Part shown: positions 22,625 to 35,968 of the stretch, piece after piece
Numbering within the stretch: the first letter of the stretch is position 1
Layout: every line of letters starts with the position of its first letter
Assembly: GCA_015232405.1 (NCBI GenBank)
Contig: JADFZS010000004.1
Location: 12,053-76,052, forward strand
Length of the DNA stretch: 64,000 bases
Origin: Magnetococcales bacterium
Lineage (GTDB): Bacteria; Pseudomonadota; Magnetococcia; Magnetococcales; JADFYX01
Reading direction: 5' to 3'
Notes under the pieces: model-generated
What the model saw: only the letters and a program-made list of their open reading frames with translations
Database searches by the model: none
Told to the model about the DNA's origin: nothing
Program-made: the position numbers and the translations under genes

Positions 22625-22692
22625 CCTAGTTAACTTTTTGTTTATATGGTAAATTCAAACCAAATCTGGACAAAAAAATATTTTTATTATTA

Positions 22693-22822
22693 GGGGTGCA
22701 GGGGGATTATCTCCCTGCTGGGTTTGGGCGAAGCCCAAGGTTTTGCCTTTGTTTTTAAGTCTTTACATTCAAAAGTGTGGGGGTTTGGGGCCTGCAAGGC
22801 CTCCCAAGGTTTTGCTTTTGAC
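22693..22822 (+). repeat. REP-like half element related to the arms of the cruciform elements
   Basis: GGGGTGCAGGGGGATTATCTCCCTGC-TGGGTTTGGGCGAAGCCCAAGGTTTTG, then a second degenerate GGGTTTGGG...CCCAAGGTTTTG. Confidence 0.75.
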
Positions 22823-22845
22823 TGTATATTTTTGATTTAAAATCA

Positions 22846-23322
22846 CTATACATCGATATTTTTCAGCTCTTCATCAATTCGTGCCTGCATTTTTTTATCG
22901 GTATCGGTAGTTGGTGTTGCAGTTTTAATACTGTTTTTCTTCCATTTTTTAAATGCTGTTATCAGGGCAAGCGCACCTATGATCAGTCCGAAAGCGGGAC
23001 CAAACCAGAGCAGCATGTTCATACCGGACTTTGTAGGTTTGAGGTATATGTAGTCACCGTAGCGTTGGAAGAAATAGTCTCTTATGGAGGCTTCGCTTTC
23101 TCCGGCGTTTACTTTATCTCTGATGACCTCAAGCATATCTTTGGCGAGGTCTGAGTTAGACTCATAGATAGACTGGTTTTGGCAAACGGCACAGCGGAGA
23201 TCTTTAGCGATGGTTCTTACGAGAGCTTCGCTGGGATCTTCATTTTTGGTTGTTGCAGATAGTGGCGATGCTGTTAAAAACAGTATTGCAAACAGTATTA
23301 TAAGATTTAGATATCGTCTCAT
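22846..23322 (-). CDS. ccmH: Cytochrome c biogenesis protein CcmH
   Basis: LRCAVCQNQSI, RYGDYI. Start taken at MRRYL. Confidence 0.93.
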   Translation of the reverse strand: MRRYLNLIILFAILFLTASPLSATTKNEDPSEALVRTIAKDLRCAVCQNQSIYESNSDLAKDMLEVIRDKVNAGESEASIRDYFFQRYGDYIYLKPTKSGMNMLLWFGPAFGLIIGALALITAFKKWKKNSIKTATPTTDTDKKMQARIDEELKNIDV

Positions 23323-23323
23323 A

Positions 23324-23875
23324 TCATGTTTTCCCACCTGAGTTTGTTCCTTGGATTTGTGGCAGAGCGATTTTTTCAAACCAGCCGAAGTATAGGGGTC
23401 CGGTATGTTTTAATCTTATCATACCTGTGGGGTCCACAAGGTAAGATTCTGGTGCACCGTATACCCCCCAATCTATTGCTATTTTTTGTTTAGGGTCAAA
23501 GGCGTGTTTATAGCCGGGGTCGCCGTGACGTTGCAGAAATCTATTGGCTCCTTCTCTGGTATCGCGAAAGTCCACACCAATTATCAGAAAATCATCTCGT
23601 TTATCGGCGATTCTAGCTAGTTCCAGCAGATATGGATGTTCGGCAACACAGCTGATGCACCAGGAGCCCCAGAAGTTTACTAGCACCCATTTTCCTTTAT
23701 AGTCAGAAAGGGAGATATTACCGTTACCTTTAAGGGTAGGTGCGGTAAAATCTGATGCTGGTTTATTTACCAGTGGCGAGGGTATATCTCGGGGATCATT
23801 GCCCAAACCTCCGGCAAACAGGGCCATGATGACAACGAGAGATAGTAGCAGGATAATTTTCCAGGAATTTTTCAT
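23324..23875 (-). CDS. ccmG: Thiol:disulfide interchange protein CcmG/DsbE
   Basis: NFWGSWCISC, WGVYGAPESYL. Confidence 0.95.
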   Translation of the reverse strand: MKNSWKIILLLSLVVIMALFAGGLGNDPRDIPSPLVNKPASDFTAPTLKGNGNISLSDYKGKWVLVNFWGSWCISCVAEHPYLLELARIADKRDDFLIIGVDFRDTREGANRFLQRHGDPGYKHAFDPKQKIAIDWGVYGAPESYLVDPTGMIRLKHTGPLYFGWFEKIALPQIQGTNSGGKT

Positions 23876-23924
23876 GATATCCTAATTAAAATAACAAAAT
23901 AAAATAACAAAAAATAAAACTAAT

Positions 23925-24336
23925 GGGGGTCCAGGGGAATCATTTCCCTGGTGGGTTTGGGCGAAGCCCAAGGTTCTGTCTTTGCTTTAAGGCCGAATTT
24001 ACAAAAGGCGTTTTTTTGCCTTTGCTTTTAAAAAAACGTCTCGGCCCGTATCTTAATTTATAAGTATATAATCCCAGTCTTTTTTGGGATTATATACTTA
24101 TAAATGCTATTTACCAATCACGGGTTGGATTAAATCCGACCGTTGGTAGGTAAAGGATGCTAGCAAAGGTAGAAAACCCCCAAAAGCTGGGTTTTCTACC
24201 TTTGCTAGCGAATATACTAGCCGGGGGCTTTTTTTAAAAGGCACAAAAAAAGCCCTTTATAACTCCGGCTTTACAGCAACAGCAAAACCTTGGGCCTTGC
24301 CCAAACCCACCAGGGAAATGATTCCCCTGGACCCCC
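23925..24336. repeat. 412-bp cruciform palindromic element (REPIN/MITE-like), copy 1
   Basis: ~125-bp imperfect terminal inverted repeats (first 38 bp perfect), three internal hairpins, ACTAAT on both sides. Second copy at 34122-34528. Confidence 0.9.
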
Positions 24337-24360
24337 ACTAATACAGCCTTTTTTATATGC

Positions 24361-26325
24361 CTACTCCAGCTTTTTTTCCCTACTAATCCGCCCCTGCATA
24401 AGCGCAAATATAACACCCAACGCCATAATACCAGAACCAGTCCAAACCCAGACAATCAACGGATTTCTATAAACCCGAATAGACCAAACATCCTTCTTGA
24501 CCTCATCACCCAACACCACATAGATATCCTCAAACCACGTGGTGTGAATAGCTGCCTCAGTAGTGGGTTGCGAAGTCTCATTATAAACTCGCTTCTGCGG
24601 CCTTAACTCAACAGAAAAACCACTATCATGCTCAGCCGTTATAACCGCCTCAACCGCTCGCCAGTTGTATTTACTCGCTGTACCTACCCTGTCCAAAGTG
24701 AAATTCCAAGAACCAACCTTAACCTTGTCCCCAGATGTCATGAATAGGTTCTTCTCCTCCTGATATAAACCAGAACCGATAAAACCAGCAGCCATAACCA
24801 AAATACCAAAATGTACTACAAAACCTCCATAACGACGCTTGTTTCTACTAATAAGCTGCCACAAAGTGGTAACAGCCGAACCCGACTCCCGGTTTTTCAT
24901 ACGGGCAACAACCTTCCTGCGAGTGTCCAATATATGGGTCGCCAAAACAAAAGCCATCACCACAGATGTGCTAATTCCATAAAAATTGCCCATGCCCATA
25001 GCCCAAGCGGCAATGCCCGTAACAACAGCAAATATGGTCGGTATTAATAAATCCCGCTTTAACTGCCTGAAACTTGCCTTGCGCCACGAAATAACCGGAC
25101 CTATACCCATCATCAATATGATACCCAACATAATCGGGATGAAGACCGCATTATAATATGGAGCACCCACCGAGACCTTGGAATCAGACCAAGTCTCGAC
25201 AGCTAATGGATACAACGTGCCCAATAACACCGTTAAGGTGGCAACCAACAAAAATAGATTATTAAATAAAAATGCCGACTCCTTTGATAGTGGGTTTTCA
25301 AGCTTGATGTCGGTCTCTAGATGCTCCGATTTCATGGTCAACAGACCAAAGGAGAAAAATAGCAATACCGTCATAAATGCTAAAATATACACCCCTCGAC
25401 CAGGATCAGAAGCAAAAGAGTGGACCGAAGATAAAACCCCGGATCTCACCAAGAATGTACCCAAAATCGCCAAGGCAAACGTCATGGTAACCAAAAAGAC
25501 GTTCCAGGTTTTAAACATCTGTCGCTGCTCTTGCACCATTACCGAATGTAAAAATGCCGTCGCCGTCAACCACGGCATAAATGAGGCGTTCTCCACCGGG
25601 TCCCACGCCCAATATCCACCCCAACCAAGCTCGTAATAGGCCCAATAAGCACCAAAAACAATTCCCGTCGTCAACATGGCCCATGAAAAAAGAGTCCATC
25701 TTCTCGTTGCCACAAGCCACTCTTCATCAGCCTGACCAGTTATCAATGCTGCCATGGCAAATGCATAAGGTATGGCAAAACCAACATAACCCATGTAGAG
25801 AAATGGTGGATGAAATACCATGCCTGGATCTTGTAAAAGAGGATTTAAATCTTTTCCATCAAATGGTGGTGGTATCAATCTCTCAAATGGAGTCGATAAA
25901 AACAGCACCAACAACAAAAAGCCCACTAAAAGAGCACCCAAAATAGCCAATACATAAGGCATGGATACCGGATGGGTCTTCCAATGCCGCCATGCTGCTA
26001 CACCGATATAAACAGAAAGCAACCACGCCCAGAGTAACAAAGAGCCTTCATGACCACCCCACATAGCTGTCGCCAGATAAAATATTGGTAGATCCAACGA
26101 GGCGTGTTTGGCTACATAAAGAACTGAAAAATCATGATTTAAAAAAGAGTTGACCAAACCAACAGTGGAAACAGTCAAAAGCAGTGCGACAACAACGGCA
26201 GAATGCCTGCCAACACGTATCCATGCGTTATTACCACTTGTTACCCCATACAGAGAGGAGAATATCTGTAAAAATGTTAAGATCAGTGCCAAAAGGGCAG
26301 AAAAATGGGCAATTTCAATCCACAC
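24361..26325 (-). CDS. ccmF: Heme lyase CcmF
   Basis: HPPFLYMGYVG, WGGYWAWDPVENAS, SVHSFA. Confidence 0.97.
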   Translation of the reverse strand: MWIEIAHFSALLALILTFLQIFSSLYGVTSGNNAWIRVGRHSAVVVALLLTVSTVGLVNSFLNHDFSVLYVAKHASLDLPIFYLATAMWGGHEGSLLLWAWLLSVYIGVAAWRHWKTHPVSMPYVLAILGALLVGFLLLVLFLSTPFERLIPPPFDGKDLNPLLQDPGMVFHPPFLYMGYVGFAIPYAFAMAALITGQADEEWLVATRRWTLFSWAMLTTGIVFGAYWAYYELGWGGYWAWDPVENASFMPWLTATAFLHSVMVQEQRQMFKTWNVFLVTMTFALAILGTFLVRSGVLSSVHSFASDPGRGVYILAFMTVLLFFSFGLLTMKSEHLETDIKLENPLSKESAFLFNNLFLLVATLTVLLGTLYPLAVETWSDSKVSVGAPYYNAVFIPIMLGIILMMGIGPVISWRKASFRQLKRDLLIPTIFAVVTGIAAWAMGMGNFYGISTSVVMAFVLATHILDTRRKVVARMKNRESGSAVTTLWQLISRNKRRYGGFVVHFGILVMAAGFIGSGLYQEEKNLFMTSGDKVKVGSWNFTLDRVGTASKYNWRAVEAVITAEHDSGFSVELRPQKRVYNETSQPTTEAAIHTTWFEDIYVVLGDEVKKDVWSIRVYRNPLIVWVWTGSGIMALGVIFALMQGRISREKKLE

Positions 26326-26440
26326 AAAAACACCTCGGATTATCTACTTGTATTTACAAAAAAATTATTAAAAAACACTACCAGCAAGTACCGGGGTTGA
26401 ATCGAAGAAAAAACCCCAAAAAAATATCACCTTCAAAAAT

Positions 26441-26896
26441 CTATTGCATAGATTTCAAAATCGACTTCTTGGCCTTGGCAATACCCTCTTCACTCATCTC
26501 AACAGGCATATAATCCTCGGAGTGTTTAGCCAATATAGACTTAGCCATAAAATCTTGACCACCCTGCCACATACCCTCAACAATTACACCTTGGCCCTCC
26601 CGGAAAAGGTCCGGCAGCATACCGTCATAGCGCACAGGAAACATATTCTCCCCATCTGTAACCAAAAAGCGGATTTTCAGGGTTCCCTCCTCCTTTACCA
26701 AAGAACCCTCCTGCACCATGCCACCAATTCTCACGGTTTTACCATCCAGGTTATCACTTTTTTGGATAATTTCCGTCGGTGTATAAAAATAGACCAACGA
26801 ACCGGTAAATGAAGAGAATACCAACGATAACAATGCTCCACCCACAACCAGAACCGTGAGCATGAGAAATAGCCGTTTTTGCTTTTTTTTCATCAT
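26441..26896 (-). CDS. ccmE: Heme chaperone CcmE
   Basis: LPDLFREGQGVIVEG, LAKHSEDY. Confidence 0.95.
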   Translation of the reverse strand: MMKKKQKRLFLMLTVLVVGGALLSLVFSSFTGSLVYFYTPTEIIQKSDNLDGKTVRIGGMVQEGSLVKEEGTLKIRFLVTDGENMFPVRYDGMLPDLFREGQGVIVEGMWQGGQDFMAKSILAKHSEDYMPVEMSEEGIAKAKKSILKSMQ

Positions 26897-27024
26897 GAGG
26901 TTTTCTGCTCTTTCAACTGTTGTTGCGCCCGCTTAAGACCCCTTTGCCACTTAAGGGTGAGAACACCGTAGACCACTGTGGCAACACCATAAACAGCAAT
27001 AACGTAGGGTGTGTAATCAATCAT
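26893..27024 (-). CDS. ccmD: Heme exporter protein CcmD (43 aa, absent from the ORF track)
   Basis: MIDYTPYVIAVYGVATVVYGVLTLKWQRGLKRAQQQLKEQKTS*: TM plus basic tail, between ccmC and ccmE with overlapping start/stop codons. Confidence 0.85.
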   Translation of the reverse strand: MIDYTPYVIAVYGVATVVYGVLTLKWQRGLKRAQQQLKEQKTS

Positions 27025-27712
27025 CTTCTTCCATCCTTTCAATATCCAACGCTTCTAGCTGCCTTAATGCAGCCACCTCACGGGCCTTTACCACCACCAA
27101 ATAGGCGCCCATAAGGATAAAAGCAATAGCCATTACCAGCAGAGGTGGCAACAGATCACCAGTTATCGTGGGGTTGCCAGAAGCACCACCAAACGATGGA
27201 GGCTGATGCAAAGTACGCCACCAAACTACAGAATAATGTATAATAGGCAGATCCACCGCCCCGATTATAGCTAAAATTGCCGTAGCACGGGCCGCTTTTG
27301 TCGGCTCTTCCAATGAACTACGCAGTGCCATCAAACCCATAAATATGATCAAAAGCACCAACATGGAGGTAAGACGAGCATCCCATGCCCACCATGTACC
27401 CCACATGGGTTTTCCCCATATAGAGCCAGAAGCAAGGGTTACAGCTGTAAATGCGGCACCCACGGGAGCCGCAGCTTCCGCAATGATATCTGCTGTCTCG
27501 CTCTTTTTAACAAGATATGTGATGCTGGCAATGGTTAACAGTATATAGCTAAAAAGAGACATTTTGGCTGATGTAACATGGGCATATAATATCCGCACCG
27601 AGTTGCCCTGCTGAAAATCAATGGGGGCATTGAACACCATCCATAGACCAACACCCAACCACAACAGAGCCATGAATCCTAACGGTCGTTGTATGCGAGC
27701 TAATAAATTCAT
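27017..27712 (-). CDS. ccmC: Heme ABC exporter permease CcmC
   Basis: WGKPMWGTWWAWDARLTS. Confidence 0.97.
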   Translation of the reverse strand: MNLLARIQRPLGFMALLWLGVGLWMVFNAPIDFQQGNSVRILYAHVTSAKMSLFSYILLTIASITYLVKKSETADIIAEAAAPVGAAFTAVTLASGSIWGKPMWGTWWAWDARLTSMLVLLIIFMGLMALRSSLEEPTKAARATAILAIIGAVDLPIIHYSVVWWRTLHQPPSFGGASGNPTITGDLLPPLLVMAIAFILMGAYLVVVKAREVAALRQLEALDIERMEEDD

Positions 27713-27721
27713 TGCCTAAAT

Positions 27722-28387
27722 CTACTCCTCAACCAGCCAAGAAAAACCCCAAGGGGCCAAGGCGAGATAAACCATATCAAAAATCAGCAGCAGTTTAATC
27801 CAGGGCCAGGGTTGACCATCTGCGACCATAACACCGGCTGTGGCCTGTACTCCCGCTATTAATAGGGGAGCCACCAGAGGCAACAGAAGCAGTGCCAATA
27901 GTGTCTCTCTCGATCTTGCTGCCTGGGTCATGGCAGCCAGCAGCACTCCCAACCCGGTTAAACCCAATATTCCCAAGACCAACACCCCAAAAATATGATG
28001 TATAACATGCCATGCGTCAACATTGAAAAGGATCATGGTCAAAGGTAAAATCATAGCTTGCACAAGCAGGGTCAAAAACAGATTTCCCAACCATTTACCG
28101 AGAAAAATAATACCCCGGGGAACCGATGCCAACAACAATCCCTCAAAGGCTCCATTCTCCTCCTCGGCCTGAAACACCCGTCCCAACCCCATCAAACTGG
28201 TAAACAGAACCGTCGCCCAGACAAGACCCGGTAACAGTTTGACCGCAGCCTGCCTGTCAGGTTCAAAAGCAGCTTGAAAAACCACTAAAACTGCAATGGC
28301 AAAAAAAAGCATGGACGAAAGAGAAGAACGGCGACGAAGATCACCCACCATATCTTTCCAGGCTATTCGATAGGCTGCTTTTAACAA
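27722..28387 (-). CDS. ccmB: Heme exporter CcmB
   Basis: Multi-TM protein, EENGAFEGLLL, LLLPLVAPLLI, operon position. Confidence 0.93.
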   Translation of the reverse strand: MLKAAYRIAWKDMVGDLRRRSSLSSMLFFAIAVLVVFQAAFEPDRQAAVKLLPGLVWATVLFTSLMGLGRVFQAEEENGAFEGLLLASVPRGIIFLGKWLGNLFLTLLVQAMILPLTMILFNVDAWHVIHHIFGVLVLGILGLTGLGVLLAAMTQAARSRETLLALLLLPLVAPLLIAGVQATAGVMVADGQPWPWIKLLLIFDMVYLALAPWGFSWLVEE

Positions 28388-29040
28388 GTGACCACCTCCC
28401 CTTCCGGCAACAGGCGACCCTTCTTTAAAAATTGTGGTTTATGATCAAGAGCAGCAACCCGTTGGGGATCATGGCTTGCCATGATAATCATACCACCACC
28501 TTTGAGAAAATCTGTCAAAATGGAATTCAACCAATTAACACCCTGAGCATCTAAAGCGGAATATGGCTCATCCAACAGTAAAAGAGATGGTTTGGCTATT
28601 AGAACACGGGCCAGTGTCAGCCGTTTTTTCATGCCGGCAGAAAACCAACGGCTCGGTCTGTCGGCAAAACGACCAAGACCCACCGTTTCGATTGTTTTAC
28701 GAATAGCATCATCAGAAGGGGTCAGCTGTCTGAGATCGGCAAAAAAAAGTAGATTTTCAACCGGGGTAAGATGTCCATAAAGGTGGCTGTTATGGCTGAC
28801 AAATACCAATTTATCGCGGATTTCATCACCATGGTTTTTTGAGTCCAAACCATCAAGGGTGTACTGCCCTTTTTGTAGAGAAAAACGTGTGGACAAAAGG
28901 GTAAGAAGGGTGGATTTACCAGAGCCGTTATCACCAAACAGAACAACACAATCGCCAGCGTGCATGGTCAATTCGATGCCTTGCAATACTTTATGTCTGC
29001 CAAATCGGTGATGCAAACCTGTTACTGCTAACTTAACCAT
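28381..29040 (-). CDS. ccmA: Heme ABC exporter ATPase CcmA
   Basis: GDNGSGKS, FSAGMKKR, LLLDEP. Confidence 0.93.
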   Translation of the reverse strand: MVKLAVTGLHHRFGRHKVLQGIELTMHAGDCVVLFGDNGSGKSTLLTLLSTRFSLQKGQYTLDGLDSKNHGDEIRDKLVFVSHNSHLYGHLTPVENLLFFADLRQLTPSDDAIRKTIETVGLGRFADRPSRWFSAGMKKRLTLARVLIAKPSLLLLDEPYSALDAQGVNWLNSILTDFLKGGGMIIMASHDPQRVAALDHKPQFLKKGRLLPEGEVVTC

Positions 29041-29134
29041 ATATGCACTTAGCTCGGACAGTTAAAGATATCCGGGTTGGGAATTAAATAAAGTGTAGAG
29101 ATGCTTTGATCCCAAAAAATGGTAGTTGAAACTG

Positions 29135-30220
29135 TTATCGCTTAGAAGGTTTAATCAGACGGCCTTCCATACCAATTTTTTCTTTAATCAGTCGCCCTGC
29201 CTTTTCGGCCTTGGTTCTTGTGGAAAAAGGCCCCAAACGAACCCGGTAGTACGTCTTGGACCGGATATTGGCAGTCTCCTGATAAACTGGCATTCTCTTA
29301 CCGTTGAACATAACAGAGCGTAGCTTGCTTTGCAACGCCCTGGACCGTTCAGCATTGGATAAGGAGGCTATCTGCATGGAGTAACCATTTTTTGGGGTTA
29401 CACTACCACTGGGCTCAACAGCTCTTGCTGGCTCTTTTTTCGCAACTGGTTTTACACTGTTTAGCTGTTTTTTGGCTACATACTGTTTCGGCTGCTGATT
29501 TTGTTGCGCCTTTTTTTGTTTAGCTAAAGCGTCAGCTATAGCTTTGCTGAAATCTATATTTGTCGGTGGCAACTCTTTTGCCCTATTGGTCACAGGCTGC
29601 TGTTTTGCTGCTTTACTTCTCTCCAATGCCCTTTTACTTGCTAGCTCAGCCTCTCTTATCCTTCTGGCAGCTTCCTGTTTTGCCTCCTGGGCTTTTTTCA
29701 ATTTTTCGGCATTGGCCTGTTTTAATTTATCCGCTTCGGCTTTTTTCTTTTTGGCCTCAGCCAGTTTTCTTGCCTCTTCCTTTTTAAAGGCCACCTCTTT
29801 ACGAACCGCCTCTAGTTCAGCTGGAGAACGGTTCCACCCACCTTGCAACTCCTCATCAGGAGTTTGACCACCTAGAACATGTCCCTCCTCAGGGGGAGCC
29901 TCTGCATTTTGTTGCTCTTTTGTAGGCAGACTCTCTCCAGGTTTAAGAACAGTACGATTGTTTAATTTTTCATAATTAAGTTCATCGTTGACATGGTTAC
30001 TAAACACCGCAGCTGTTCCAGACAACCCCTTATTCTGATATCTATCTGAACGCCCCATTCTGTCGGTCAATTTGACCATGGGCCGTTTTGCCACATCCTC
30101 TTCGACCAGATCTGATGGAGAGCTGACCATATTGAAGATGACAACAACGAGTATCAACAGAAGGATGACACCGCCAGTTATCAAAAAAAGTTGCTGTTCT
30201 CTGTTGGGTGAAGCTTTCAT
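29135..30220 (-). CDS. SPOR-domain protein (FtsN/DedD-like)
   Basis: N-terminal TM, charged linker, C-terminal YSMQIASL...YYRVRLGPF. Confidence 0.85.
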   Translation of the reverse strand: MKASPNREQQLFLITGGVILLLILVVVIFNMVSSPSDLVEEDVAKRPMVKLTDRMGRSDRYQNKGLSGTAAVFSNHVNDELNYEKLNNRTVLKPGESLPTKEQQNAEAPPEEGHVLGGQTPDEELQGGWNRSPAELEAVRKEVAFKKEEARKLAEAKKKKAEADKLKQANAEKLKKAQEAKQEAARRIREAELASKRALERSKAAKQQPVTNRAKELPPTNIDFSKAIADALAKQKKAQQNQQPKQYVAKKQLNSVKPVAKKEPARAVEPSGSVTPKNGYSMQIASLSNAERSRALQSKLRSVMFNGKRMPVYQETANIRSKTYYRVRLGPFSTRTKAEKAGRLIKEKIGMEGRLIKPSKR

Positions 30221-30285
30221 TTTAGGATATGAGACCCCTATTTTTACCTTGACGAAACAATAATTTTTCTTGCATTATTCCATCT

Positions 30286-30831
30286 ATGAAACATTGTGCA
30301 CTACTAACTATTTTTGGTAACGATCGCCCAGGCATTGTTGCCCAGGTGACCAAAGTCCTCTTTGAGACAGGCTGCAATATTGCAGACTCCAGTATGACCC
30401 GTCTGGGTGGGGAGTTTACAATAATGCTGATAGTCTGCTACCCAGAAGGTTTCACTTCTGAGCAATTATCCAATAAACTTATACCTGTCGTCAACGAAAT
30501 GGCACTTGAACACCATGTCAAAGATATTGAAACTTCCGCTGCTCTAAATCCTAATCCAACACAGCCCGAAAGGGAATGTATAATTAGCGTTCTAGGTGCG
30601 GATCAGCCCGGTATCGTCTATCGGGTGGCCGAAGCAATTCAAGATACAGGCGGAAATGTAAGCGATTTATACACGCAAGTCATTGGTTCACCTGATCGGC
30701 CAGTCTATACTATGATCATTGAAACAGAGTATTCCAGCAATATTGAGGCCATACAGAAGCGTTTAGATAAATTGGCTGTTGAGTTGCAGGTTGAAATCTC
30801 ATTGCGTATTGCGCAATCGGACCCACTATAG
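30286..30831 (+). CDS. GcvR-like double ACT domain protein
   Basis: GNDRPGIVA and GADQPGIVY ACT motifs. Confidence 0.88.
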   Translation: MKHCALLTIFGNDRPGIVAQVTKVLFETGCNIADSSMTRLGGEFTIMLIVCYPEGFTSEQLSNKLIPVVNEMALEHHVKDIETSAALNPNPTQPERECIISVLGADQPGIVYRVAEAIQDTGGNVSDLYTQVIGSPDRPVYTMIIETEYSSNIEAIQKRLDKLAVELQVEISLRIAQSDPL

Positions 30832-30860
30832 CAGACTTTTTATATTTTATGTGATTCCCC

Positions 30861-31397
30861 ATGGCTGTGCTGGACATTCTTATCTACCCTGATGAAAGGT
30901 TGCGAGGTATTTCTGAGGAGGTTGTCGATTTTGCCGACCCCCAACTGCAACAATTCATTGATGATCTAATCGATACCATGCATGCTGGTCCCGCCTGTGT
31001 AGGAGTAGCTGCTCCCCAGACTGGAAAACAGATCCGCTTGGTTTTAATGGACTGTTCCCTGGCTCGCAAGCCACCAGAAAATAACCATGGTCAACTTGTG
31101 GTGATAAATCCGGTAATACTTAATTGGGACGGTATGGATGTCGCTCGTGAGGGATGTCTCTCCCTGCCGGATTATACTGGTAATGTTATGCGAGCGGTTG
31201 ATATCACGGTACAATTTCAAGATCGCCATGGTAAAGAACATGCCCTTACCATGACCGAATTTGAAGCAAGGGTATTACAACATGAGATGGACCACCTTGA
31301 CGGCAAGCTTTTTACCGACCGTATAGTGAGCCGTAAAGCCGACCTGTTTCGCCGTAAAGTTCGTGGAGTAAAAAAGAAAAAAACTGCTCAACAATAG
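30861..31397 (+). CDS. def: Peptide deformylase
   Basis: GVAAPQ, EGCLS, QHEMDH. Confidence 0.96.
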   Translation: MAVLDILIYPDERLRGISEEVVDFADPQLQQFIDDLIDTMHAGPACVGVAAPQTGKQIRLVLMDCSLARKPPENNHGQLVVINPVILNWDGMDVAREGCLSLPDYTGNVMRAVDITVQFQDRHGKEHALTMTEFEARVLQHEMDHLDGKLFTDRIVSRKADLFRRKVRGVKKKKTAQQ

Positions 31398-31636
31398 CTG
31401 CCTTCCTTTTTTTTAGTTAAGGACAAGTAACCATCTCTTTAATTAACGATGTGTGGACTATTTGGTTTTTTTACAAATAGAGGCGGAAATTTGCTTGACG
31501 GCAAGCTAATATTGATTCAGAATTAACCGTTTTTCATCTAGTTGCTGTAAAAAATCATTTTTTGCTAGCTGGATACTTGACTAATAACAGACTCTTTATG
31601 GTAGTTACCATTTAAGAATTTTGTGAGGAAATAGCC

Positions 31637-31771
31637 GTGAAAAGAACTTTTCAACCCAGTACAATACGTCGTAGCCGTACCCACGGTTTTCGCTCTCGTA
31701 TGGCCACAAGAGCAGGACGCAAATTGCTCTCTCGCCGTCGCGCCCGTGGTCGTAAGCGTCTCTGTCCGTAA
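31637..31771 (+). CDS. rpmH: 50S ribosomal protein L34 (absent from the ORF track)
   Basis: GTG start: [44 protein letters not shown]. Confidence 0.98.
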
Positions 31772-31804
31772 AGCTGTAGCTTTAAAAAATGATAGCATAG
31801 GCTT

Positions 31805-32194
31805 TTGAAGGTTGAAAAACAGGGGCTTTTGGGGGTAGGCAATAAATTTCCCAAATCGGCCCGTATATTGACCTCTGCTGGTTATCGTCATGTAACTGGT
31901 AGAAACACTAAAAAAAGCGTATCACCCCATTTTTTGCTATTTGTTTTGCTTAATAAAGGTGGTAAAGAGCCAAGATTGGGCATGACTGTAAGCAAAAAAG
32001 TTGGTAATGCTGTTGTGCGTAATCGGATTAAAAGGGTTGTCAGGGAATTTTTCCGGCAGAACAGATCCCTGCTTACTTCCTCATTTGATTGTGTAGTTAT
32101 CGCACGACCTCGTGCTGGCAAAACCAGTGGGGCTGAGTTAACAAAAAGTTTAGCTAAACTTTTTAGGCCATATCAAAAATCAATTGGTACTTAA
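31805..32194 (+). CDS. rnpA: Ribonuclease P protein component
   Basis: RLGMTVSKKVGNAVVRNRIKR. Confidence 0.97.
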   Translation: MKVEKQGLLGVGNKFPKSARILTSAGYRHVTGRNTKKSVSPHFLLFVLLNKGGKEPRLGMTVSKKVGNAVVRNRIKRVVREFFRQNRSLLTSSFDCVVIARPRAGKTSGAELTKSLAKLFRPYQKSIGT

Positions 32195-32200
32195 GAGCTT

Positions 32201-32425
32201 GTGAAACCTGTAATTTTAGCTTTAATTAAGTGTTATCGCTATTGTATCTCGCCGATGCTACCGCGCAGTTGTAGATTTTATCCCAGCTGTTCGGAGTATG
32301 CTGCGGAGGCAGTTACGGATTATGGCGCGTTAAAAGGCAGTTGGTTGGCTATGCGTCGTTTGGCAAAATGTCACCCTTTCCATCCCGGTGGAGTAGATCC
32401 CGTTCCCGAAAAAGTCAAGAACTAG
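32201..32425 (+). CDS. yidD: Membrane protein insertion efficiency factor YidD
   Basis: [24 protein letters not shown]. Confidence 0.97.
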
Positions 32426-32433
32426 GAATTCCC

Positions 32434-34101
32434 ATGGACCAGCGTACAATTCTGGCCATCAGCTTGTCATTTATTTTGCTGGTGTCCTATCAAACCTATA
32501 TGGACACTTATTATCCACCTGCGCCTATGGAGCAGCAGATGGAGCAACCTTTGGAGGATGAGAGCAGAAATCTTTCTGAATCTGGGCCACGTCCTAGTAC
32601 TGTTGACGGGGTACGTGTTGGCAAGGGGCCTGATGGGCCGGTAGCCGAAGAGGCAGCACCTGAAATTACTACCAAGGTAGCTCCCAGCGGCCCAGGCGAA
32701 ATTTTTAAATTTGAGGATGGTGTCGTAAGAGGTGAGATTGCCCAAACTGGTGGTCGCATTGCAAAGCTATCATTTTTAAAACATTTAGATGAGCTACCCC
32801 CGGAAGGGCAGCCTATTCAATATATGGATCAAGATTCCCGTGAGTTTTTCTTTGCGGAGTCTGGATTTTTAGGTTCAGCTGGTTTTGTTGCCCCGAATCG
32901 TGAGACCATGTGGCAACTAGTTAGTGGTGAGGGCCTTGTTGGTAGTGGCGACTTACATTTAAGCTGGAACAATGGCAAAGGGGTAACATTTGAAAAAATC
33001 TATTCTTTTACTGAGGATTCCTATCTATTTACAGTAACCGACCGGATTATCAATAAAAGTCAAAAGGCCTTTGAGTTTTATCATTATTCTCAGTTTGTGC
33101 GTGTTGAGCCGGGTGTTGGTGATGGGGAGCAGATGTTAGCCATTGCTGATTTTGAAGGACCAATGGGCTATTTGGATGAGGCGCGAGTACAGCATGAGTA
33201 TTCTGATTTAAAAGAGGCGGATCAGCGTCAGAGGGCAAAATCCGGCTGGATTGGTATTAGTGATAAATTTTTTCTAGCAGCTTTAATTCCGCCCAAGGGT
33301 GAAAAAGAGAACAATTTCTATTTTGATTATGATGTCCCGGCCCATCGAGCTGGTACTGTTTCCAATAAAGAGGTTATAAGTGCTGGTGGTGAGGTATCGG
33401 TTGCCACGCAGATGTATATTGGCCCCAAGGAGGTTAAGACACTTGAGAGCCATAACCTAAATTTACAGCGAGCTATTGATTATGGTTGGTTTCATTTCCT
33501 AGCGGAGCCAATTGTTCAGGTGTTGTTGTATTTAAACGGTATTTTCCACAATTTTGGTGTTGCCATTATTCTTTTGACCTTTGGCATCAAGATAGTTCTA
33601 TTTCCATTGGCCAACAAGAGCTATGTCTCTATGAACGCCATGAAGAAGCTACAGCCCAAGATTGAGGAGTTAAAAACCAAGCATGGGGACAATAAAAAGG
33701 CTTTAAACGAAGATATGATGAAGCTTTACCAGACCAACAAGGTTAATCCGTTGGGTGGTTGTCTACCGATGATAGTGCAGATTCCGGTATTTTTTGCTCT
33801 TTATAAGGTTCTATTTTTATCGGTTGAGATGCGTCATGCGCCGTTTATGTTATGGATAGATGATTTATCGGTGATGGACCCATATTTTGTTTTACCGATA
33901 TTGATGGGTGCTTCGATGTTTTTCCAGTCTAAGTTAAACCCGACTCCGGCTGATCCGATTCAGGCGAAGATCATGATGTTTTTACCGTTGATTTTTACCT
34001 TTATGTTCATGACGTTCCCTGCTGGTTTGGTTCTGTATTGGTTGCTTAACAATGTCTTATCCATAGCACAGCAGATGTATATTCTTAAAAAAGAAGGCTA
34101 A
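32434..34101 (+). CDS. yidC: Membrane protein insertase YidC
   Basis: YIGPK, NPLGGCLPMIVQIPVF, FPAGLVLYW. ATG at 32434 is the likely start. Confidence 0.97.
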   Translation: MDQRTILAISLSFILLVSYQTYMDTYYPPAPMEQQMEQPLEDESRNLSESGPRPSTVDGVRVGKGPDGPVAEEAAPEITTKVAPSGPGEIFKFEDGVVRGEIAQTGGRIAKLSFLKHLDELPPEGQPIQYMDQDSREFFFAESGFLGSAGFVAPNRETMWQLVSGEGLVGSGDLHLSWNNGKGVTFEKIYSFTEDSYLFTVTDRIINKSQKAFEFYHYSQFVRVEPGVGDGEQMLAIADFEGPMGYLDEARVQHEYSDLKEADQRQRAKSGWIGISDKFFLAALIPPKGEKENNFYFDYDVPAHRAGTVSNKEVISAGGEVSVATQMYIGPKEVKTLESHNLNLQRAIDYGWFHFLAEPIVQVLLYLNGIFHNFGVAIILLTFGIKIVLFPLANKSYVSMNAMKKLQPKIEELKTKHGDNKKALNEDMMKLYQTNKVNPLGGCLPMIVQIPVFFALYKVLFLSVEMRHAPFMLWIDDLSVMDPYFVLPILMGASMFFQSKLNPTPADPIQAKIMMFLPLIFTFMFMTFPAGLVLYWLLNNVLSIAQQMYILKKEG

Positions 34102-34121
34102 AAAAATAGCTTTTAACTAGT

Positions 34122-34528
34122 GGGGGTCCAGGGGAATCATTTCCCTGGTGGGTTTGGGCGAAGCCCAAGGTTTTGTAGTTGCTGTAAAGCCGAATATTAA
34201 AAGTCGTTTTTTTGCCTTTGCTTTTCAAAAAACGTCTCGGCTAGTCTATTAACCCCCAAAGCAATAAAACCCCGTCTTTTTGGGGTTTTATTGCTTTGGG
34301 GGTGTCCTTTACTCTCCATTGGTGGGAGTTAATTTAATCCCTTGCTAGGTATAGGACACATATCAAGAGACAAAAACCAAAAGGACGGTTTTTGTCTCTT
34401 AATATGCTAATAGATTAGCCGGGAGCTTTTTTTGAAAAGCACAAAAAAAGCTCTTTTAAATTCCGGCTTTACAGCAAAACCTTGGGCTTTGCCCAAACCC
34501 ACCAGGGAAATGATTTCCCTGGACCCTC
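34122..34528. repeat. 407-bp cruciform palindromic element (REPIN/MITE-like), copy 2
   Basis: Same arms as 23925-24336, different internal hairpin stems, flanked by ACTAGT and ACTAAT. Confidence 0.9.
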
Positions 34529-34567
34529 ACTAATGGGAGCATACCCACTAGTATCGGTATATTTATT

Positions 34568-35968
34568 ATGCGTCATATTAACTCCACAGATCCCATAGCA
34601 GCCCTCGCTACCCCCCCCGGTCGCTCCGGTGTAGCCATAATCCGCATAAGTGGTAAAAATGTCTGGAAAAAATTAACCCCTCTGCTTAAATATCCAAACT
34701 CAAAACCCATAAGCCCAACACCACCAACCCCCAGAGTTTTACAACGTATTGATCTTATAGACGCAAACAACCAAACCCTAGATCAAGCACTGGTTGTCTA
34801 TTTCAAAGGACCCAACTCCTTTACAGGTGAAGACCAAATAGAGATCCAAGGCCACGGCTCCCCCGTTGTTATCGCCCGAACCATGGAACGACTTTCCCAA
34901 CTAGGTATCAGACCCGCCGACCCCGGTGAGTTCTCCCGTAGAGCCTTTCTAAACGGTAAAACCGATCTGGCCCAAGCAGAAGCACTGATGAACCTAATCA
35001 ATGCCTCTTCCCTAAGAGCAGCAAGAGAGGCCACTAAACAGATGGAGGGAACCCTCTCCCAAAGATTGCAAAACAACCAAGCCCTGCTACTAGAAGCTCT
35101 GGCACACCTGGAAGCAACATTAGACTTTGCCGACGAAGATATTTCACCAGATGATCAACTAGCCATAGCAGGCCGACTAACAAAAGTAGCCGAAGATATC
35201 GGTCAACTACTACAAGGATCAACACTTGGAAAACAGCTGGCCCACGGCTTTGAACTGGCAATAATTGGTAGACCAAATGTCGGAAAATCCACCCTGTTCA
35301 ACCGTCTATCAGGCCATAACAGAGCCATAGTTACCCCACTACCAGGCACAACCAGAGATATCCTGGAAAGCCCCATCGAAATACACGGTATACCCGTACA
35401 ACTTACCGATACCGCTGGTCTAAGAGAAACAGACGAAATAATTGAAGAAGAGGGTATAAAAAGAGCAAAAGAGAGACTACAAAAAGCCGATGCCGTACTG
35501 CTACTGCTTGATATATCAAAAGAAATTACAAATGAAGATCAAGAGATCATCAAGCTTGCTCCTCTCGATAGAACAATAATAGTTTGGAATAAACAGGATT
35601 TAACTGAATCCAACAAAATACCAGATACAAATAAACTAGGTGTAGATCAAGCCGTTGCCTCAGTGGTAATATCATGCAAAAAAGACAGAGGTATCAACCA
35701 ACTAACCGAAAAAATAGCCAGCTTTTTCGGCTCCCAGCCCATAGATGGCGAAGGGAGCGTGGTTATGGTAGCCAGACAAAAAGAGAACCTACAAAAAACC
35801 ATTTCACATCTGGCAAGCGCAGAAGCTCTCCTTCTCCACTGCGAAAATGAAGAGCTAGTAGCAATCGCAATAAGAGAAGCCCTAAACTCCATAGGTGAAC
35901 TAATAGGCAAAACTACCCATGACGACCTCCTAGACCTGATTTTCAGCTCCTTTTGTATAGGTAAGTAG
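34568..35968 (+). CDS. mnmE: tRNA modification GTPase MnmE
   Basis: GRPNVGKS, GTTRD, DTAG, C-terminal FCIGK. Confidence 0.98.
   Translation: MRHINSTDPIAALATPPGRSGVAIIRISGKNVWKKLTPLLKYPNSKPISPTPPTPRVLQRIDLIDANNQTLDQALVVYFKGPNSFTGEDQIEIQGHGSPVVIARTMERLSQLGIRPADPGEFSRRAFLNGKTDLAQAEALMNLINASSLRAAREATKQMEGTLSQRLQNNQALLLEALAHLEATLDFADEDISPDDQLAIAGRLTKVAEDIGQLLQGSTLGKQLAHGFELAIIGRPNVGKSTLFNRLSGHNRAIVTPLPGTTRDILESPIEIHGIPVQLTDTAGLRETDEIIEEEGIKRAKERLQKADAVLLLLDISKEITNEDQEIIKLAPLDRTIIVWNKQDLTESNKIPDTNKLGVDQAVASVVISCKKDRGINQLTEKIASFFGSQPIDGEGSVVMVARQKENLQKTISHLASAEALLLHCENEELVAIAIREALNSIGELIGKTTHDDLLDLIFSSFCIGK

Follow-up and report, generated by a model that had tools for sequence, protein, structure and literature searches.

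Two palindromic elements of about 410 bp in the genome of a Magnetococcales bacterium raise the question of how hairpin stems that differ strongly between copies can stay almost perfectly paired, and what kind of repeat carries them. Both lie in a 64,000-nt stretch of contig C280 (the window, to which positions refer) of the source genome, G000 (5.86 Mb, 335 contigs); genomes G001 to G004 are relatives. We found that each of these apparent cruciforms is a tail-to-tail inverted pair of a mosaic intergenic repeat unit of ~215 nt. The units form a real, previously undescribed repeat family, best filed among mosaic intergenic repeats resembling repetitive extragenic palindromes (REPs), bacterial interspersed mosaic elements (BIMEs) and MITEs (miniature inverted-repeat transposable elements). 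This structural and evolutionary description is well supported; as to function, sequence comparison leads us to lean towards a host-beneficial, cis-acting structural element at gene boundaries that most likely acts on transcripts.

An inverted-repeat finder reproduced exactly the coordinates, arms and stem counts (21/21, 21/21, 22/22 and 19/20) that a preliminary description of this DNA had given for the two elements, here called A and B:

23921-24016 / 24245-24340, arms of element A, 96 nt, 85% complementary
24056-24076/24085-24105, stems of the left hairpin of element A, 21/21, 8-nt loop
24159-24179/24189-24209, stems of the right hairpin of element A, 21/21, 9-nt loop
34118-34175 / 34475-34532 (58 nt, 95%) and 34179-34214 / 34442-34477 (36 nt, 83%), arms of element B
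34252-34273/34282-34303 (22/22) and 34359-34378/34387-34406 (19/20), hairpin stems of element B

A 24-nt arm motif occurred four times in the window, with three or fewer mismatches, and was absent from 100 shuffles. Folded as single-stranded DNA (ssDNA), element A reached -147.5 kcal/mol, compared with -53.1 +/- 4.7 kcal/mol for shuffles (z = -20).

An alignment of 24 units and a consensus fold gave the layout of the unit. It begins with GGGGGT, followed by a 10-bp hairpin (P1) and a 7-bp G+C hairpin with a T-rich tail (P2). The third hairpin, P3, consists of a clamp (consensus GCCGG/CCGGC) enclosing a T7/A7 hairpin and is followed by a conserved linker. P4 is a hairpin of ~21 bp in which the apex is conserved (an A-run, CCC, the loop G(T/G)C(T/C)TTTT, GGG and a T-run) and the basal ~14 bp are variable. 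A conserved tail ends the unit, and in pairs the two tails meet as a central hairpin. The elements had been described as a single junction of three hairpins closed by the arms; instead, the arms belong to two independent multi-hairpin units, which are also found solo. The units and their parts in the two elements are as follows:

23925..24130, + strand, left unit of element A (A_L), P1-P2-P3-P4-tail (unit alignment; nhmmer match C280:35965-36187, window 23913-24135)
23931..23951, + strand, P1 hairpin of A_L, 10-bp stem including one G.T pair, 1-nt loop, GGGGGT just 5'
23952..23973, + strand, P2 of A_L, 7-bp G+C stem, 3-nt loop, T-rich tail (terminator-like call at 23956-23972); module in common with the ssoT origins discussed below
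23991..24046, + strand, P3 of A_L, GGCCG/CGGCC clamp enclosing the T7/A7 hairpin
24056..24105, + strand, variable hairpin P4 of A_L, 21/21, loop GTCTTTTT (inverted-repeat finder)
24106..24158, no strand assigned, central hairpin of element A, formed by the two unit tails
24131..24336, - strand, right unit of element A (A_R) (nhmmer match C280:36400-36181, window 24348-24129)
24159..24209, - strand, variable hairpin P4 of A_R, 21/21 (inverted-repeat finder)
24220..24269, - strand, P3 of A_R
24288..24330, - strand, P2 (24288-24309) and P1 (24310-24330) of A_R
34122..34325, + strand, left unit of element B (B_L), with P1 at 34128-34148, P2 at 34149-34170, P3 at 34189-34241 and P4 at 34252-34303 (22/22)
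34326..34528, - strand, right unit of element B, with P4 at 34359-34406 (19/20), P3 at 34418-34467, P2 at 34480-34501 and P1 at 34502-34522

The family is larger than the two copies first described, both of which are real. Searching the source genome by nhmmer with a profile of 12 units returned 107 matches. Of these, 23 spanned at least 150 nt of the unit and the remainder covered P1-P2 only; these ~80 P1-P2-only copies mostly lie within a separate MITE-like element of ~200 bp. We counted five inverted pairs, namely A, B, a third full pair (G000:C166:25330-25767) and two pairs, on C155 and C265, whose units are separated by spacers of ~50-70 nt, together with 14 solo sites; loci L050-L055 were left out of the unit counts as duplicates of loci already counted.

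Inverted repeats of this kind could in principle be chimeric inverted joins produced during amplification or assembly. Palindromes do break assemblies, and the G001 copy of element B spans two contig ends. However, the two halves of each element are unlike, with arms 81-89% identical and different P4 hairpins, and paired loci recur with compensated substitutions in the separately assembled congeners G001 and G002. We therefore regard an assembly artefact as extremely improbable.

The divergent yet paired stems are those of the variable hairpin. Across the alignment of 24 units, 97.6% of cells paired, compared with 81.5% after shuffling, a level that none of 500 shuffles reached; sliding the partners by one to three columns lowered pairing to 40-65%. 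Changes on both sides were seen at 19 of the 21 pairs of the P4 helix. We then compiled 40 P4 hairpins, 20 from the source genome and 20 from G001, G002 and G004, in which 813 out of 832 pairs were Watson-Crick (4 were G.T, 3 A.C and 12 other). Stem length stayed within 18-22 bp, which bears out the earlier claim of a fixed stem length with varying sequence and intact pairing. Perfect stems were found in 26 out of 40 hairpins, and the other 14 had one or two mismatches. Nine comparisons between orthologues comprised 144 unchanged stem pairs, 33 that had changed on both sides and were still Watson-Crick, 6 that had changed on one side, and none that had changed on both sides and lost pairing.

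The stems had also been called hypervariable and attributed either to selection on structure alone or to a mechanism that captures short sequences or rewrites one arm from the other. P4 is indeed less alike than P1-P3 among paralogues (69% versus 85%), although its 5' arms keep a consensus, so that "hypervariable" holds only in part. Between orthologues, identity rose to 81% for P4; P1-P3 reached 88.5% when orthologues were compared and 84.6% over 190 pairs of paralogues. A search of the source genome with 13-mers from P4 found essentially no copy outside their own hairpin. Capture of short sequences is thus not supported: P4 has a consensus, orthologues are closer than paralogues, and the 13-mers have no source elsewhere in the genome. 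The P4 stems therefore descend from a shared ancestor and drift while the need to pair constrains them. The heavy covariation with pairing kept agrees with structure-only selection on the stems, and selection for the hairpin explains the P4 data; rewriting of one arm from the other may contribute. Of the 33 compensated changes between orthologues, 22 were transversion pairs, for which there is no route via G.U, and 17 adjoined another double change. These transversion-rich, adjacent double changes are hints, short of proof, of block events.

Could the pairing be kept by mutation alone? In such a scenario the units would be functionless palindromic DNA, with stems maintained by template switching within the hairpin or by repair of extruded hairpins and arms kept alike by exchange between copies. 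According to part of a published account, perfect hairpins can arise and be kept through template switching (PMC8794818), and the same source indicates that template-switch (quasipalindrome) mutation explains simultaneous, clustered changes in both hairpin arms. The transversion pairs and adjoining double changes fit this idea, as do two non-orthologous P4 hairpins in G001 that are 86% identical. Template switching is, however, a mutational process rather than an element, and the inverted loops that it predicts were absent from the 40 hairpins. The unpaired P4 loop, the linker and the start of the tail are conserved in a strand-specific manner, and copying from arm to arm offers no explanation for this. 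Orthologues are closer than paralogues in the arms as well as in P4; homogenisation is therefore weak, and conservation is not just copy-to-copy exchange. P1-P3 are also at least as conserved as the neighbouring genes: their identity between species equalled or exceeded that of flanking coding DNA (72-86%) and was far above that of the tail and spacer (about 39-76%). We consider it very unlikely that the units are functionless.

Non-canonical pairs and the P4 loop indicated which strand is read. In 41 P1 hairpins, we counted 18 G.T and no A.C pairs; P3 had 14 G.T and 6 A.C pairs. These are counts as computed, automatic hairpin detection having mis-anchored 2 out of 41 P1 rows and about 6 out of 42 P3 rows. 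In the forward sense, most of the 40 P4 loops read G(T/G)C(T/C)TTTT; a few were divergent and none was the reverse complement. Because both the wobble pairs and the loop are strand-specific, the forward strand of the unit appears to be what is read, folded as a single strand of RNA or DNA.

The unit belongs to a lineage of magnetotactic cocci. Among named genomes, the long arm pattern was found solely in metagenome-assembled genomes (MAGs) of Magnetococcales. The unit profile matched 23 out of 41 genomes of the order, the source genome included, and outside three close congeners the matches covered P1-P2 only. Searches with flanking sequence showed that many loci of the source genome are orthologous in congeners: the C166 pair is present in G001 and G002, element B in G001 (split at the contig end noted above), and the C265 pair and solo unit, together with units on C144, C30 and C160, in G002 or G001. 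Since many loci are common to congeners, the units are old and chromosomal. Many have been inherited vertically within the genus, and some have been lost or trimmed through deletion. At the A site, G002 has the same ACTAAT flanks, but these enclose just a 32-nt palindrome (GGGGGT-P1-ACCCCC); G001 has a degenerate palindrome and G004 has nothing. At the B site, only P1-P2 is left in G004, and G003 has nothing. Five units of relatives lack a counterpart unit at the site in the source genome, one of these sites retaining a lone P4 relic. At the other presence/absence sites, the spacers are too diverged for precise empty sites to be read. As the left and right P1 copies of element A are also near-direct repeats of each other, the difference at the A site is most simply a deletion between them, although it may instead reflect an insertion.

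These differences bear on whether the family is a non-autonomous mobile element, similar to a MITE or to a REPIN (a REP doublet forming a hairpin), that an enzyme encoded at another place, or since lost, moves in trans in the form of a folded single strand. P1-P3 would then be the recognition site of the enzyme, P4 a passenger hairpin, the pairs the mobile form and the solo units decay products. Multiple copies as singlets and inverted doublets are what such an element would leave, and presence differs at orthologous sites (A, B and the five units of relatives). The G.T strand asymmetry resembles that of hairpins recognised as ssDNA, and P1-P2 travels inside a true MITE with terminal inverted repeats. 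A tandem partial duplication and a nested insertion, on C160 and C194, point the same way. By contrast, clean terminal inverted repeats are lacking from the unit, as is a target duplication. The ACTAAT/ACTAGT sequences flanking the pairs can be read as an extension of the palindrome or as a duplication and are therefore ambiguous, and solo units have no terminal inverted repeats. Most of the loci examined in the source genome are shared with congeners and paralogues are ~15% different, which argues against a recent burst, and the A-site difference is simply explained without transposition. The window had been said to hold no mobilising gene, and this was confirmed; moreover, no transposase-like protein recurred among 462 open reading frames (ORFs) near the 107 matches in the source genome, and no insertion sequence emerged there as a partner. 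No gene for a REP-associated tyrosine transposase (RAYT) flanked by the same arms came to light: none of 31 Y1_Tnp loci in the 41 genomes of the order, whose assemblies are fragmented (6 loci in the source genome), had a P1-like hairpin within ~1.5 kb of flanking sequence. Likewise, no MobV relaxase was found in the 41 genomes. Taking these results together, we judge mobility in trans unlikely.

Some loci have a more complex structure. On C160 (G000:C160:136-456), a full unit stands in tandem with a partial copy that lacks P4, which suggests local duplication or deletion within units. At G000:C194:2340-2515, P1 of a solo unit is interrupted by a ~180-bp palindromic element that belongs to another family. 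A gene on C194 bracketed by two inverted units was considered as a transposase candidate and rejected, as it encodes a membrane protein. A RAYT-like ORF of 222 aa (G000:C266:8311-8975; Y1_Tnp, 50.8 bits) has its own inverted repeats, unrelated to P1, and similar ORFs of ~225 aa occur in many genomes of the order.

We compared the family with described repeats. The preliminary description had recognised no known architecture, and indeed none of 4227 Rfam models matched the window at the gathering threshold; the best sub-threshold hit was Clostridiales-2 (RF02937) on P1, at 21.1 versus 58.6 bits. Our literature search, supplements aside, returned no description of these repeats. The resemblance to REPIN- and MITE-type repeats that had been pointed out was borne out by the mixture of five inverted pairs and 14 solo sites. 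Like REP, BIME and REPIN sequences, the units are intergenic, hairpin-forming and mosaic, have a G-rich hairpin foot, occur as singlets and inverted doublets, and lie mostly at gene 3' ends. Unlike them, the unit is ~215 nt long with four hairpins rather than 20-40 nt, and no RAYT gene is flanked by P1 (0 out of 31 loci). In addition, the 21-nt P1 is flanked by GGGGGT and TGGG and lacks a GTAG/CGTC-type tag of the kind given in part of PMC3733652.

Higher-G+C relatives from other genera of the order (loci L033, L035, L036 and L047) have a BIME-like arrangement, in which P1 is followed by two to four short G+C hairpins in tandem, separated by GGG. Other bacterial MITEs and mosaic repeats include the Correia/NEMIS, ERIC, BOX and RUP families. 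As in these, the elements are 100-400 bp long, show long inverted symmetry when paired, are modular and intergenic, and may have effects at the RNA level. They differ in several respects: the unit has neither terminal inverted repeats nor a target duplication, half-elements occur commonly, most loci have orthologues across species, and the unit contains an internal hairpin under structure-only constraint.

One part of the unit reaches far beyond this genus. A blastn search of plasmids with element A matched P1-P2 only, in 63 records, and an 81-nt query matched 183 records, 152 from Bacillus and 156 typed as mobilizable. We inspected five MOBV plasmids; in each of them the module shares the strand of mobV and is located upstream of that gene at a distance of 83-145 nt, next to an inverted repeat resembling an origin of transfer (oriT). 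A sixth plasmid has the module upstream of mobC and a gene for a relaxase. The plasmid module is the end of a conserved region of ~230 nt that starts with the Rfam "Bacillus-plasmid" motif (RF01691). Functional, orientation-specific single-strand origins (sso) of the ssoT type have been located on pTA1060 (NC_001766:6349-6549) and pTA1040 (NC_001764:5109-5307); both are related to ICEBs1 sso1 and to the sso of pBAA1, as reported in part of PMC4595007. Both start with RF01691 and end with a hairpin and then the P2 sequence, and they match A_L and B_L over 23 nt at 95.7%. Only the last 23-64 nt of the ~200-nt region are shared. RF01691 coincides with the first stem-loop of these defined origins (L133 155-210 and L134 165-220, from pTA1060 and pTA1040) and also occurs on pMA67 (L127 1333-1401); hence the motif is probably an element of ssDNA origins and not a gene for an RNA. 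It was not detected in the source genome, in a search for which the Bacillus subtilis control was positive.

The module also occurs in several other phyla. A 22-mer P2 pattern was present in at least 111 stretches of species-representative genomes, compared with ~0.3 expected by chance. It was carried by Clostridia (many copies in several MAGs), Bacilli, Akkermansia, Porphyromonadaceae, Flavobacterium and Bradymonadia, among others, and almost all of the 22 loci viewed had a hairpin of variable sequence 5' of the 22-mer. The P1 pattern was present in at least 118 stretches, mostly from Magnetococcales but also from Clostridia, Desulfovibrionaceae and Acidobacteriota. Among 79 P2 loci of other taxa, MobV was the only recurrent neighbour (13 loci), and Rfam gave no relevant matches to ten P2-carrying loci of other phyla. 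The P1-P2 module is older than the unit and far more widespread. In one Ruminococcus MAG the 22-mer was seen on at least 12 contigs, and a Lachnospiraceae MAG had three copies in tandem. Four IMG/VR viral contigs (L123-L126, 52-67% G+C) carry the P1 pattern, followed by a P2-like hairpin in L123, L124 and L125; the whole element had no match among phages.

Given this link, the units, or at least P1-P2, could be sso-like ssDNA signals, in which the folded forward strand recruits RNA polymerase or primase and the pairs serve both strands. P1-P2 makes up the 3' end of origins that are, like the unit, multi-hairpin and strand-specific, and the matches to the pTA1060 and pTA1040 origins and to mobilizable plasmids, upstream of mobV, favour such a role. 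The G.T pairs and the multi-hairpin layout with structure-only stems also fit; part of PMC4595007 provides a published precedent for stems in an sso where structure rather than sequence counts. On the other hand, the unit lacks the 5' ~150 nt of ssoT, including RF01691, and shares only the last 45-64 nt of the ~200 nt; P1-P2 comes first, with the unrelated P3 and P4 after it. Orientation of P1-P2 was unrelated to GC skew (45 out of 94 sites), so there is no lagging-template bias. Neither is there an evident reason for a chromosome to keep ~100 such sites, in host genomes of the order (41) where no MobV gene was found, rolling-circle Rep genes not having been sought. Moreover, the P1-P2 part of ssoT may be a terminator and not a priming site. 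An sso-like role thus appears improbable. We hold equally doubtful a broader proposal, in which P1-P2, familiar until now only from the 3' end of Gram-positive ssoT origins, where it passed without remark, would be an unrecognised cross-phylum nucleic-acid signal that a universal enzyme of the host reads on a single strand in folded form. Magnetococcales would have domesticated ~100 copies, extended in this genus to the ~215-nt unit with a length-measured, sequence-free P4 of about two turns that is kept partly by arm-to-arm copying. Judged by their defining tests, the family is neither a REP-RAYT system, nor a classical MITE, nor an ssoT origin.

The position of the repeats relative to genes also bears on function. 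Of 75 classifiable P1-P2 sites in the source genome, 35 lay in convergent, 36 in co-directional and 4 in divergent spacers, compared with a genome baseline of 420, 1871 and 393, respectively. In co-directional spacers, P1-P2 was sense in 26 cases and antisense in 10 (p = 0.011). Among solo units, 12 out of 14, plus one judged by eye, start shortly after the stop of a same-strand ORF, within 100 nt except in two cases (C12 and C194:2166), which lie up to ~190 nt past the stop across intervening P1-P2 copies or the nested insertion. Elements A and B lie between the genes that had been named for them, ccmF/ccmG and yidC/mnmE:

23324-23875, - strand, CcmG-like thioredoxin, neighbour of element A, with CcmH next
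24361-26325, - strand, CcmF, neighbour of element A
32341-34101, + strand, YidC, neighbour of element B
34568-35968, + strand, MnmE, neighbour of element B

The cis-acting role at gene boundaries that we favour would have the unit read as a folded forward strand, RNA or ssDNA, at these boundaries. Acting on transcripts, it might serve 3'-end formation, insulation or stabilisation, as in REP/BIME and ERIC-type repeats, and the inverted pairs would serve both directions. P1-P3 stay near their consensus at every locus, and the constraints on P4 are its length and its pairing alone. What keeps P4 paired would be selection favouring a hairpin some two helical turns long, possibly aided by intra-hairpin template switching.

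Several observations weigh against this role. The sense and convergent bias was not replicated outside the source genome: 86 P1 sites at 80 loci, 37 of them classifiable by a crude ORF heuristic and some not from Magnetococcales, gave 11 convergent, 11 divergent, 4 sense and 11 antisense. Within pairs, conservation is as high in the unit that runs antisense to both genes as in the sense unit (0.93-0.94 versus 0.82-0.91), so a DNA-level or two-directional role fits better than a purely sense-RNA role. All five pairs lie between co-directional ORFs, one of them inside the ccmF-ccmG-ccmH cluster, where a strong terminator would be awkward. The sole demonstrated function of the P1-P2 module is in ssDNA, as part of an sso, and not in RNA. 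The presence/absence differences between congeners also fit a mobile element.

The same points apply to the simplest transcript-level explanation, an intrinsic terminator. P2 scans as terminator-like, with a G+C stem and T-run, lies just past stops, and in an inverted pair would serve both directions, like a bidirectional terminator. However, termination does not need a 22-nt sequence conserved across phyla, and a 7-bp stem is short. Three results weigh against a simple terminator: the orientation bias that was not replicated (26:10 in the source genome, 4:11 elsewhere), the conserved antisense half and the position of pairs between co-directional genes.

Whatever its function, the family is a natural example of sequence-constrained and structure-only parts standing side by side at dozens of loci, and the orthologous copies in sister species let compensatory evolution, and possibly template switching, be measured directly. 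It connects the chromosomal intergenic repeats of a proteobacterial order that is uncultured with stem-loops at the end of sso from Gram-positive plasmids, and the occurrence of the 22-mer in Clostridia, Bacteroidota, Verrucomicrobiota and other groups suggests a signal that is widely read. The result would be an ordinary one if the module proved to be only a dispersed terminator or a relic MITE.

The window also contains a copy of the second, more abundant repeat, the MITE-like element of ~200 bp in which most P1-P2-only copies lie:

22649..22846, + strand, MITE-like element between an FKBP gene and ccmH

The terminal inverted repeats of this copy are imperfect, its flanks are TA/TATA and one stretch resembles a promoter; it carries the P1-P2 module internally (22695-22740) together with a second P2-like hairpin.

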